64,000 nucleotides of DNA from sequence record NC_054921.1, one strand, 5' to 3'. The translations under genes and the position numbers were made by a program. The number at the start of each line of letters is the position of its first letter. Position 1 is the stretch's first letter. Of the stretch, positions 26,688-42,081 are shown piece after piece. This DNA is from Escherichia phage vB_EcoM_IME537. Under the pieces are notes generated by a model. That model did not search any database, was not told the DNA's origin, and saw only the letters and a list, made by a program, of their open reading frames with translations.

Positions 26688-27701
26688 TCATTTATAATAA
26701 CTTCGGTGGTTTTCAAGATAGACCTTCTCAAGGAAGTCATCCCAGAAACTCATGTCTACTGTTTTAGGCATACCGTTCTTAGAAGCTTCAGTAGATGCTG
26801 CTTCTACTTGATCGACCACATCTTCCAAAAACTCTTGAACCGTTTTAAATGGATGTTTACCCAACTTCACGTCAAGAATAAATGGAGCGTCTTGAAGTGG
26901 ATAAACCAAGTCACCAGTTTTGTAAATTTCCAATAGTTGAAGTCCACCACGACAAGCATGGCTCAGAGCTTTCCAGTCAATACCTTCGTTGGCTTCGGCC
27001 TTACGGGCACGTTCACCATATTCAGCATCTAATTTGTTCAGTGACTGCTTAAGCTCAATAAGAGAAAGCGTTGTCTGATATTTACGACCCAACACAGTGT
27101 AGAACATTTGCGGGCCTGTTTTCTCATAATTATGGAACACCCATTCACAGAACTCGTTTTCTGGAAGACGATGCTTAATATCTTCAACTTTAGTGCGACG
27201 AAGTCTATCAGGGATTCCTTCTTGATAGTCGACCCACTGGTCAGGGATTTGATTAACTACTTTCAATACATCACGTAATGCGGCCAAACGAGAACCCTTG
27301 ACACCGTATTTAGAAGCTTGCTTACGGACATATCCTAAATAGGATTTCATGTTAGTCGTATAAAAACGAGAACGGTTGTCTTGAATAAACTTCCACACAT
27401 CAGGCAAATCAGATTTAACCACTAGCTCAGGTGGAGTGTGAAGCATATCTAATGCTACAGTTTCACCATCTGCTGCTAATTTAAAGAAATACTTAAGACT
27501 GTATAGTTCATGGTCAATATCATCTTTAGTGTTTTTAGATGATGTGTTGTTAGTGTTTTTACTCATGTGCTCTTTAACGTTTCCAATAAGAATATCACGA
27601 GCAGGAGGAACAAAGATTTCTTTAAAATCTACATCAGATTCTGGTGTAGAAGTTCCATAAAGATGACTACCAAAATAACTTTTCATTACTGTTTTCATCA
27701 T
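26688..27701 (-). CDS. Pol-beta-superfamily nucleotidyltransferase, specificity unknown
   Basis: 337 aa; N-terminal GS-x10-DVD motif (GSHLYGTSTPESDVDF) and a downstream acidic residue (ALDMLH). Confidence 0.55.
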   Translation of the reverse strand: MMKTVMKSYFGSHLYGTSTPESDVDFKEIFVPPARDILIGNVKEHMSKNTNNTSSKNTKDDIDHELYSLKYFFKLAADGETVALDMLHTPPELVVKSDLPDVWKFIQDNRSRFYTTNMKSYLGYVRKQASKYGVKGSRLAALRDVLKVVNQIPDQWVDYQEGIPDRLRRTKVEDIKHRLPENEFCEWVFHNYEKTGPQMFYTVLGRKYQTTLSLIELKQSLNKLDAEYGERARKAEANEGIDWKALSHACRGGLQLLEIYKTGDLVYPLQDAPFILDVKLGKHPFKTVQEFLEDVVDQVEAASTEASKNGMPKTVDMSFWDDFLEKVYLENHRSYYK

Positions 27702-28159
27702 TCAGCCTTATATTCAATAACAGGACACACTTTAGCTTTACGAGCTTTTAAAAATTCAACGATAATCGATTTCTTGGGTTGAATAGGAGGTAAACCTTTA
27801 TACGCCCTATCAATGTTTTCTACGTGTAAAGCATAATCCTTTTTCCATTTATAATCTTTATATTTTTCACGCAAATGTGCAGGAATAACAAATGAACCGA
27901 TAATAAGTAAAACAACAAAAAGCGCAAGTATAAATGCCGATGGAAGAAGAATCCATAAACTACCGAAAATAAGCCAACGTTGTAGGCTTTCTGCACAAAT
28001 AATTGTTAGCCCTACGAGTATAGCACATCCAAAAATAGAAACGAAAAATGTAGGAATGGCAATAGACCAAAAATATGCGCATAGTGTCTTAGGTCGTTGC
28101 CATTCATCGTTAAACAATTTGAATAATTTATAGTGCCAAGAGTTTTCATTAATAATCAT
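27698..28159 (-). CDS. membrane protein
   Basis: 153 aa; 3-4 predicted transmembrane helices. Confidence 0.5.
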   Translation of the reverse strand: MIINENSWHYKLFKLFNDEWQRPKTLCAYFWSIAIPTFFVSIFGCAILVGLTIICAESLQRWLIFGSLWILLPSAFILALFVVLLIIGSFVIPAHLREKYKDYKWKKDYALHVENIDRAYKGLPPIQPKKSIIVEFLKARKAKVCPVIEYKAE

Positions 28160-28161
28160 AA

Positions 28162-28683
28162 TTATCCTTTCATTGAAGGTGTAACAGTTGTTAAATACTT
28201 AATCATAGCCTCAGCTTCTGATTTTGATAATGAAATTTCTCCATTGTTTTGACGAATAGAAATAAAATCCGGATGACGGTCACCACCAGCTTTTAAAACA
28301 CACATATAAGTATCAGTTTCATCTTCAATATTTGAAATGATTGAAGCAGTTCCACATGAATGCGGTTTTTGATAAATCAATACAGCTTTTCTTCCGCCAT
28401 TTGACTGTTCATAAACTTTTAATACATCAAACAAATCACTTCTTTTATCAATAGCTAAAATGTTATTTTCATCTTCAATGTTAAATCCTTCGGATACTTC
28501 ATAAAGTGTCACCCATAAATCGCCAATATCAATAACAGCGTTCACTTTTCCATGACTTTCAAGAGCATGACAAATTTTCTTGATTTCGTCATAACTCATT
28601 TTAATAATATCATCTCCTTGACTAAGAAAGATGTCATTTTTAAATTCAACACGAATTAAACCGCTTCCACTTGAAATAAACAT
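28162..28683 (-). CDS. hypothetical protein, intact member of a two-gene paralog pair
   Basis: 173 aa; GFNIE motif; C-terminal domain homologous to the out-of-frame region upstream. Confidence 0.5.
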   Translation of the reverse strand: MFISSGSGLIRVEFKNDIFLSQGDDIIKMSYDEIKKICHALESHGKVNAVIDIGDLWVTLYEVSEGFNIEDENNILAIDKRSDLFDVLKVYEQSNGGRKAVLIYQKPHSCGTASIISNIEDETDTYMCVLKAGGDRHPDFISIRQNNGEISLSKSEAEAMIKYLTTVTPSMKG

Positions 28684-29231
28684 ATTTCCTCACTTTGAAA
28701 TCATAGTTGGAATAACAGAATCAAGATAAGTCTTTAGCGCAATAGCTTCGTCTTTGGTAAATGTGACAATATGTGCTCGAGAATCATCAATTTGACGAAT
28801 AGTTAAGACATCTCCTTCTTCATAGCATTTTGATACATTTAAAACAGTTTCATCATTCTGATCGCACTGATCGCAAGCGTTAGTAATAATAGCATTGCAA
28901 TTTTAAGCCATTTTAAACTATGTTTTCTTTCATTAGAATAATAAAAATATTTAATGTAAGTTATAAAATTATCCCAATTATTAATTGATAAGCATATTGA
29001 CTCGCTTTCAATGTTAAATCCTGGGCATAAAGAATAGAAATGAATTTTATGCTCATCATTAATGCTTACAATTTTATCAGTATAAGGATATTCAATTTGG
29101 GTTAAATGAATGATTTCACTAGGCGTAAAATATAGCATATCGTCTTCTTGCGTCAAACGATACATGTTATTTACTTTTTCTATAGCCAATTCACCAAAAA
29201 GCGGACTAACTTCTAGTACTAATCGTTTCAT
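28684..29231 (-). pseudogene. frameshifted paralog of 28162..28683
   Basis: ORF 28839..29231 carries the GFNIE N-domain; the homologous C-domain is encoded in a different frame at 28684..28838 with no start codon. Confidence 0.45.
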
Positions 29232-29232
29232 A

Positions 29233-29499
29233 TTAATCCTTTTTATTGGCACGAATTTGTTCTAAAATTTTAGAATATTCCTTTGTATCAGATTTACGTA
29301 CAATTGATACACTATAAGGCATACTATCGGTGTCTTTTATAAAGCGTTCCAAATGACACTCTAACAAAATTTCTGGATTATAAATCGTGTACATCAAATT
29401 ACCTGTTGCTCCACGATATTGGCAGATTTCTACTGATTGAACACCATTCCATAATTTTGTTAAAACTAAATCACCTACTTCTAATTTAGGAAAGCCCAT
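29233..29499 (-). CDS. hypothetical protein
   Basis: 88 aa from ATG 29499. Confidence 0.4.
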   Translation of the reverse strand: MGFPKLEVGDLVLTKLWNGVQSVEICQYRGATGNLMYTIYNPEILLECHLERFIKDTDSMPYSVSIVRKSDTKEYSKILEQIRANKKD

Positions 29500-29500
29500 G

Positions 29501-29686
29501 TTATTCACCAATTAAAGTTTCAATATAAGAATCAAGATTTACTTTAGCTTCTTCCATAAGAGTTTTGTATTTAATCTTGTTAGCATGTCCGGAGAAAGCT
29601 GATTCATCAATAATTGTTGATGTATGAACAGCTTTACTATACGTCTCAATTAATTCTCTTAATTTAAAAGCCTGCTCACTTGTCAT
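29501..29686 (-). CDS. small hypothetical protein
   Basis: 61-aa ORF, ATG start. Confidence 0.4.
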   Translation of the reverse strand: MTSEQAFKLRELIETYSKAVHTSTIIDESAFSGHANKIKYKTLMEEAKVNLDSYIETLIGE

Positions 29687-41916: not shown

Positions 41917-42053
41917 AGTTTTGTGAAAAAAAAAAATTTTAAAAAGTTTTGGGGAATTCTAGGGCAGGGAGGGGCAATTAAAAGATAGGATAATATATTA
42001 TAAAGGGTATAAACTAAATGATGCCTAGAGAGGTCCAAAAAGGCCTAGATACC

Positions 42054-42081
42054 AAAAAGCCCCAACCTTTCGGCTGGGGCT
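42054..42081 (-). terminator. rho-independent terminator, copy A of a direct repeat
   Basis: transcript AGCCCCAGCCGAAAGGUUGGGGCU then UUUUU; 8 nt downstream of the 42089 stop. Confidence 0.6.

Follow-up and report, generated by a model that had tools for sequence, protein, structure and literature searches.

A private one-base homopolymer frameshift in mobD.1, a frequently broken accessory gene of T-even phages, in Escherichia phage vB_EcoM_IME537

Results

Genes at the mobD.1 locus

The DNA analysed here is a stretch of 64,000 nucleotides from Escherichia phage vB_EcoM_IME537 (NC_054921.1), referred to below as the window. The 1.2 kb around the mobD.1/paralog pair matched 491 phage records, all of them T4-like (Tequatrovirus), the nearest being Escherichia phage vB_vPM_PD112 (PD112; 99.9%). 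Longer stretches of the window are mosaic, and no identical record was found among those compared. All genes of the mobD.1 neighbourhood lie on the minus strand, in the order small DUF7438 genes, phage-tudor gene, mobD.1 ortholog, RB32ORF097c-type paralog, membrane-protein gene and nrdC.11. The features of this region are as follows.

29233..29511, minus strand: phage-tudor gene, whose 92-aa product has a 'Phage tudor' domain (PF24144, E=2.7e-40)
28839..29231, minus strand: truncated mobD.1 ortholog, 130 aa, with 110 native residues that include the complete N-domain, 20 out-of-frame residues (IAMLLLLTLAISAIRMMKLF) and then TAA at 28839..28841
28901..28904, minus strand: frameshift site, a homopolymer A4 formed by codon 110 (AAA) and the first base of codon 111, read as TTTT on the plus strand
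28693..28902, minus strand: stranded mobD.1 C-domain remnant of 70 codons, set in the -1 frame with respect to the N-domain ORF, with TGA at 28690..28692
28858..28875, minus strand: in-frame 9-nt tandem duplication, TGCGATCAG x2 (CDQCDQ), within the stranded C-domain
28681..28693, minus strand: mobD.1/paralog junction GTGAGGAAATATG, where the Shine-Dalgarno sequence of the paralog (GAGG) overlaps the normal TGA stop of mobD.1
28162..28683, minus strand: intact downstream paralog of RB32ORF097c type, 173 aa (PF24449, E=2.4e-34; PF24448, E=4.6e-23; PHROG 1502)
27698..28159, minus strand: membrane-protein gene (RB32ORF096c type), next downstream of the paralog
26688..27701, minus strand: nrdC.11, the last gene of the order given above

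The position of mobD.1 in the nrdC.11 to mobD.5 block is conserved, since the same order is present in PD112, T6, RB14 and nine environmental contigs. The phage-tudor gene is missing at the corresponding position in T4, Salmonella phage pSe_SNUABM_01 and T2. In T4 the homing-endonuclease gene mobD sits where the window has the paralog and the membrane-protein gene (PMC2988022). About 26 nt of the paralog start (ATGTTTATTTCAAGTGGAAC, MFISSG...), equivalent to positions 28658..28683 of the window, remain between mobD.1 and mobD in T4 and pSe_SNUABM_01, and this 5' scar in mobD-bearing phages indicates that mobD replaced the paralog together with the membrane-protein gene. A tblastn search of the window for further members of the MobD.1 family found just the two copies. 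Scanning the region for promoters gave a background level of sites (17 vs 14.2 expected), and the terminator scan of the same region found none. Orthologs of mobD.1 bear the RefSeq label 'molybdopterin-guanine dinucleotide biosynthesis protein MobD', and are called integrase/recombinase or prohead core scaffold protein in other records. The MobD label is a name collision with bacterial mob genes, and all labels of this kind look spurious.

A two-domain gene split between two frames

The initial annotation, made from the sequence and its open reading frames, had described a paralog pair with an intact 173-aa gene at 28162..28683 and a frameshifted upstream copy that shares its N-domain. The intact gene is present at this position, and the frameshift is borne out by a comparison with PD112, against which the upstream copy is one A short; with that A put back, the upstream copy has a 180-aa reading frame. 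Both mobD.1 and the 173-aa paralog match PF24449 (T4_y05I_N) and PF24448 (T4_y05I_C) well above the gathering scores, so that the shared N-domain holds as well, and both fall into PHROG 1502. The intact 180-aa ortholog of PD112 aligns end to end with the 173-aa paralog at 28% identity (E=2e-11). The upstream gene is an ortholog of T4 mobD.1 (Y05I), a two-domain accessory protein of T-even phages. For the MobD.1/Y05I family a single continuous ORF of about 176-185 aa is expected, while the ORF in the window has 130 aa; the locus is a member of the family by descent, but it is broken.

The annotations of PD112 and T6 begin mobD.1 at the ATG corresponding to 29231, which is the start in use, and the GTG at 29252 only gives the mechanically longest ORF. 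The N-domain of the truncated ORF covers profile positions 1-98 of 99 of PF24449 (E=4.6e-41, 139.9 bits vs a gathering cut-off of 24.9), and residues 1-110 are 100% identical to the PD112 protein YP_010073042. The 20-residue tail that follows is out of frame and hydrophobic. Translated in the other frame, the stranded C-domain matches PF24448 over its 70 codons (E=4.2e-21, 75.5 bits vs a cut-off of 27), and the out-of-frame similarity to which the initial annotation had pointed is thus far beyond chance. That the C-domain lies in a different frame was correct, but it had been placed at 28684..28838 and actually spans 28693..28902, with its TGA at 28690..28692; the remnant therefore overlaps the 20-residue out-of-frame tail of the truncated ORF. 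As had been proposed, its frame has no usable start, since a TAA stands directly upstream and no ATG, GTG or TTG occurs earlier than codon 67. At the DNA level the stranded C-domain does not differ from its counterparts in PD112 and in the environmental Logan contig L024, whose alleles are intact. The TGCGATCAG duplication within it is a length polymorphism, doubled in the window, PD112 and T6 and present as a single copy in RB14, T4, T2 and pSe_SNUABM_01.

In the intact allele the stop of mobD.1 lies 6 nt ahead of the ATG of the paralog. In the window allele, ribosomes on mobD.1 terminate 155 nt sooner than in the intact allele, so that any translational coupling to the paralog, itself presumed from this arrangement, would be lost.

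Like the T4 MobD.1 (Y05I) family at large, the locus in the window has both domains above the Pfam cut-offs and occupies the family's place in the mobD region, preceded by the phage-tudor gene and followed by nrdC.11. It differs in that the two domains stand in separate frames through a 1-nt deletion, leaving the N-domain with a 20-aa nonsense tail. The window also departs from T4 in having a tandem paralog and a membrane-protein gene in place of mobD.

One missing A that is private to the record

The frame change had been assigned to an A/T-rich stretch at about 28895..28920, and the AAAA run at 28901..28904 falls inside it. The run reads GGCTT-AAAAA-TTGC in PD112, T6 and RB14, and the window is one A short. 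Its length is thus A4 in the window, A5 in PD112, T6, RB14 and the Logan contigs, and A6 in T4. Over 1201 nt the missing A is the sole difference between the window and PD112, and one A added at 28901..28904 yields a 180-aa protein identical to that of PD112.

Fourteen contigs on record encode exactly this 173-aa paralog, and nine of them were examined, namely eight Logan assemblies of separate sequencing runs and PD112. Beside the identical paralog, the upstream gene is intact (177/180 aa) in eight of these nine of 14 contigs and is a 166-aa piece cut off by the contig end in the ninth; the run is A5 in all nine. Contig L024 (SRR20950936) is identical to the window across 2858 nt apart from having A5 instead of A4. 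Without flanking differences, and with an unchanged stranded C-domain, the event is either extremely recent or not real. The truncated mobD.1 product, taken from either the ATG or the GTG start, had no exact match in a large protein collection, and the allele is therefore without an independent sighting. IMG/VR scans for relatives and for A4/A5 alleles gave four loci and one match, too few for a census, and the scan of a single metagenome gave two contigs with the locus, both intact.

In an ORF-by-ORF comparison with PD112 over 49 kb, mobD.1 was the sole genuine gene of the window that is split between frames. The window contains 331 A5/T5 runs and 64 A6/T6 runs, and the lack of any other split gene in 49 kb despite 331 A5/T5 runs argues for a low error rate per run.

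Alignment with PD112 brought up further length differences. PD112 carries an extra base at window position 27715, in the gene at 27698..28159, and reads TATTCCAATA where the window, T6, RB14 and the Logan contigs read TATTCAATA. This insertion alters the C-terminus of the RB32ORF096c-type membrane protein (453 nt vs 462 nt) and looks like a second singleton indel of the homopolymer type, located in the reference record rather than in the window. Intergenic A/T runs also differ from PD112 in a more diverged stretch, with a longer A-run at 41933 (four extra bases, A/T-rich) and A5 vs A4 at 42054.

Recurrent breaks in the gene family

With the intact protein as query, tblastn matched 725 phage records, of which an evenly spaced 60 were sampled; the gene is a single full-length piece in 57 of the 60 (∼95%). 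Full-length proteins also make up 30 of the 35 clusters in the large protein collection. The T4 gene is intact. Even so, a variety of lesions recurs in the family. All eight records of the T2 lineage, which are separate accessions, carry a contraction of the same A-run from A6 to A5 on a T4-type allele. T2 mobD.1 has also lost 2 nt at a T-run in codon 34, within the N-domain; with this second lesion upstream, T2 mobD.1 is a plain pseudogene. We also considered that the T2 'escape mutant' gained its mobD.1 lesion during escape and rejected this, since the lesion is common to all eight T2-lineage records. The T2 copy of the paralog (L010, 1538..2056) has 57% identity to that of the window, is annotated as three small CDSs and appears to be an older and more decayed pseudogene than T2 mobD.1.

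In Salmonella phage pSe_SNUABM_01, whose background is 95.8% identical and has mobD downstream, the same run goes from A5 to A4. The broken alleles of T2 and pSe_SNUABM_01 resemble that of the window in being one A short in the same homopolymer, so that the protein is truncated at the same point and the C-domain is stranded in the same way, whereas their backgrounds are at 91% and 95.8% identity to the window, respectively. T2 differs further by its 2-nt N-domain deletion and its decayed paralog, and pSe_SNUABM_01 by the downstream mobD and the absence of the paralog.

Other lesions lie elsewhere in the pair. In RB14 a T-run is shortened from T4 to T3 at codon 130 of mobD.1, which spares the N-domain. 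ECO4 has a T-run contraction from T5 to T4 at mobD.1 codon 95 and a C insertion in the paralog, so that both copies are broken, and JEP6 has a T-run deletion in the paralog; the ECO4 and JEP6 lesions were placed at the equivalent window positions 28162..28683 and 28937..28952. ECCR664, with an ortholog of 47% identity, shows A5 to A4 in a linker run close by, KMB40 a tandem duplication of about 55 nt, and the family members P0034 and P0035 are deletion fusions to nrdC.11. A 179-aa hybrid found on six contigs (P0021) joins the N-domain of mobD.1 to the C-domain of the paralog, with the crossover at ...CDQNDET/DTYMCVLKAGG..., which indicates unequal recombination between the tandem paralogs with deletion of the intervening DNA. 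Lesions this varied and this recurrent mark the gene pair as dispensable and under weak constraint, in a genome region known as variable.

Predicted fold of the domain that is retained

A literature search on mobD.1/Y05I found only a review of homing endonucleases, which names mobD.1 as the neighbour of mobD. A PDB sequence search gave no hit, and no solved structure of the family was found. Pfam labels the family 'putative transcription factor'. An AF2 model of the truncated product has pLDDT values of 84-95 across residues 1-100 and predicts the N-domain as bbbba-bbbba, which corresponds to the bbbba-linker-bbbba type I topology of the PC4-like/PUR/Whirly fold. The model of the intact paralog gave the same PC4-like fold hits. 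Proteins with a PC4-like fold bind single-stranded nucleic acid, and in Pur-alpha the third repeat dimerises and C-terminal truncations cause loss of function (PMC7549692).

The predicted arrangement of MobD.1 resembles that of Pur-alpha, Whirly and MRP1-2 in its bbbba-bbbba N-domain, a two-repeat domain followed by a third b-rich module with a helix, and differs in a sequence identity of 4-15% and in the poor modelling of the third module. The C-domain was modelled as strand-rich with a terminal helix at low confidence (pLDDT 41-63). An hhalign comparison of repeat I with the C-domain gave a weak match (E=9e-4, probability 23%; LTQEDD..E vs IRQIDD..E), and the other repeat pairs gave nothing; we put forward the presence of three PUR repeats in the family as a hypothesis. 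On the basis of the models, the truncated product would keep a complete putative nucleic-acid-binding N-domain of the Pur-alpha/Whirly (PC4-like) type, and the predicted fold, which fits the Pfam label, suggests a role of the family in single-stranded nucleic-acid binding. By analogy with PUR repeat III the C-terminal domain may mediate dimerisation, and the product encoded in the window would then retain the binding module but lose self-association. With the C-domain lost, function is probably lost or reduced.

Discussion

On our preferred reading, the window carries an early-stage pseudogene or a truncation allele of mobD.1, a dispensable and often-broken gene, and no recoding device. The break is best read as a private and very recent slipped-strand deletion of one A, which we consider probable. 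Such an event would have shortened by one A the A5 run at codon 110/111, right where the C-domain begins. As the sequence stands, translation exits the native frame after Lys110, adds 20 residues and ends at 28839..28841, and the C-domain, its coding sequence wholly preserved, is left in the -1 frame with no start codon. Among the spontaneous mutations of T-even phages, a classic type is the frameshift at a mononucleotide run. The Streisinger-type slipped-strand frameshifts at the rII hot spots of T4 share with mobD.1 a one-base contraction of an A-run that recurs in independent lineages, and differ in that the mobD.1 run is short (5; 6 in T4).

Three causes had been offered by the initial annotation, of which recent pseudogenisation and a sequencing error in the homopolymer are both still live, while a programmed frameshift has to be dismissed. 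We infer that the deletion is present in the phage DNA and not merely in the record. If a base had been dropped in base-calling or consensus, the phage would truly have A5 and an intact 180-aa gene, the main rival explanation, which we hold to be rather unlikely but take seriously, since a single-base homopolymer difference that is private to one record, with zero flanking SNPs against an intact environmental contig, resembles an error, and since the truncated product is on record nowhere else in the large protein collection from either start. PD112 has its own private 1-nt insertion in the same near-identical block of 8 kb, 1.2 kb away, so that such singletons do occur in database records, and some of the broken records are of doubtful quality (ECO4 is a 'partial genome' with both paralogs frameshifted, ECCR664 has 134 kb with 100 features). 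However, A4/A5 is a short run, and an error-prone consensus would be expected to leave traces in the many other A/T runs of five or six bases in the window (331 and 64, respectively), yet no second real gene is split between frames over 49 kb against PD112. In addition, eight separately deposited records of the T2 lineage show that this run has truly become shorter there.

Programmed recoding at the A-run, by -1 ribosomal frameshifting or transcriptional slippage, would produce both an N-domain-only and a full-length protein from the A4 template, and if the Lys tRNA slipped by -1 on U-AAA-A, exactly the native ...KWLK-NCN... sequence would be restored. Also in favour are the position of the break, between two domains, and the shortening of this run in three lineages. 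We nevertheless rejected this explanation, which is highly improbable. The site lacks an X XXY YYZ heptamer, as the zero frame reads UGG CUU AAA AUU and -1 re-pairing would take place on GCU/UAA, which would put UAA in the slipped position; a 111-nt stretch covering the site and its downstream side folds no better than shuffled sequences (MFE -16.4 vs a shuffle mean of -16.3 kcal/mol, z=-0.03), leaving no stimulatory RNA structure. Transcriptional slippage needs a long A or T run of about 8 or more, and A4 is far below a supporting length. Moreover, the two-frame layout is not conserved, given one ORF in ∼95% of the family (57/60 sampled) and A5 in 9/9 of the nearest relatives, and the second, upstream lesion of T2 speaks against recoding as well. 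E. coli dnaX and the phage tail chaperone G/GT resemble the locus in having overlapping frames that encode successive parts of one protein with an A-rich junction, but unlike these and the cases of transcriptional slippage, mobD.1 has no heptamer, no structure and no conserved split, and its run is too short; the locus neither works like nor belongs to programmed-frameshift or slippage systems. Trace spontaneous slippage at the A-run is possible, and nothing indicates a device. Selection for truncation, in which loss of the C-domain would be favoured in some hosts or during laboratory propagation and the A-run would act as a contingency locus toggling between full-length and N-domain-only protein, is very unlikely. 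It would account for the contraction of the same run in three independent backgrounds (the window, pSe_SNUABM_01 and T2) of a gene with four runs of five and eight runs of four, for the A5 to A4 deletion in the nearby linker run of the 47%-identical ECCR664 ortholog, and for the RB14 lesion at codon 130, which likewise leaves the N-domain whole. The numbers are tiny, though, with a chance of about 0.06 that both further hits match if they were random among the four 5-nt runs, and other lesions ruin the N-domain (T2 codon 34, ECO4 codon 95, the KMB40 duplication) or strike the paralog (JEP6, ECO4). Lesions scattered in this way over N-domain and paralog are in keeping with plain decay. With 4-6 nt, the run is also rather short to serve as a contingency locus. 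The gene has no known phenotype, and no papers on its function were found. There is a slim chance that the A-run at the N/C boundary is a recurrently used mutational switch, by which T-even phages would repeatedly lose, and could regain, the putative dimerisation domain of a nucleic-acid-binding protein resembling Pur-alpha. If so, the full-length protein might be costly or sensed by some hosts, and the tandem paralog might buffer its loss.

Positions 28690..29231 should be annotated as a frameshifted mobD.1 (Y05I-family) gene or pseudogene, and not as a short hypothetical protein next to a non-coding gap. In sum, a known accessory gene family of T-even phages, whose members are frequently broken, here shows an ordinary one-base homopolymer frameshift that is private to this record. 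The case neither opens nor settles a long-standing question; the minor leads that it leaves are the Pur-alpha-like fold and the repeated hits on a single A-run where two domains meet. For the T-even phages, it shows the mobD.1/RB32ORF097c pair of the variable nrdC-tk region to be dispensable and subject to repeated decay via homopolymer slippage.
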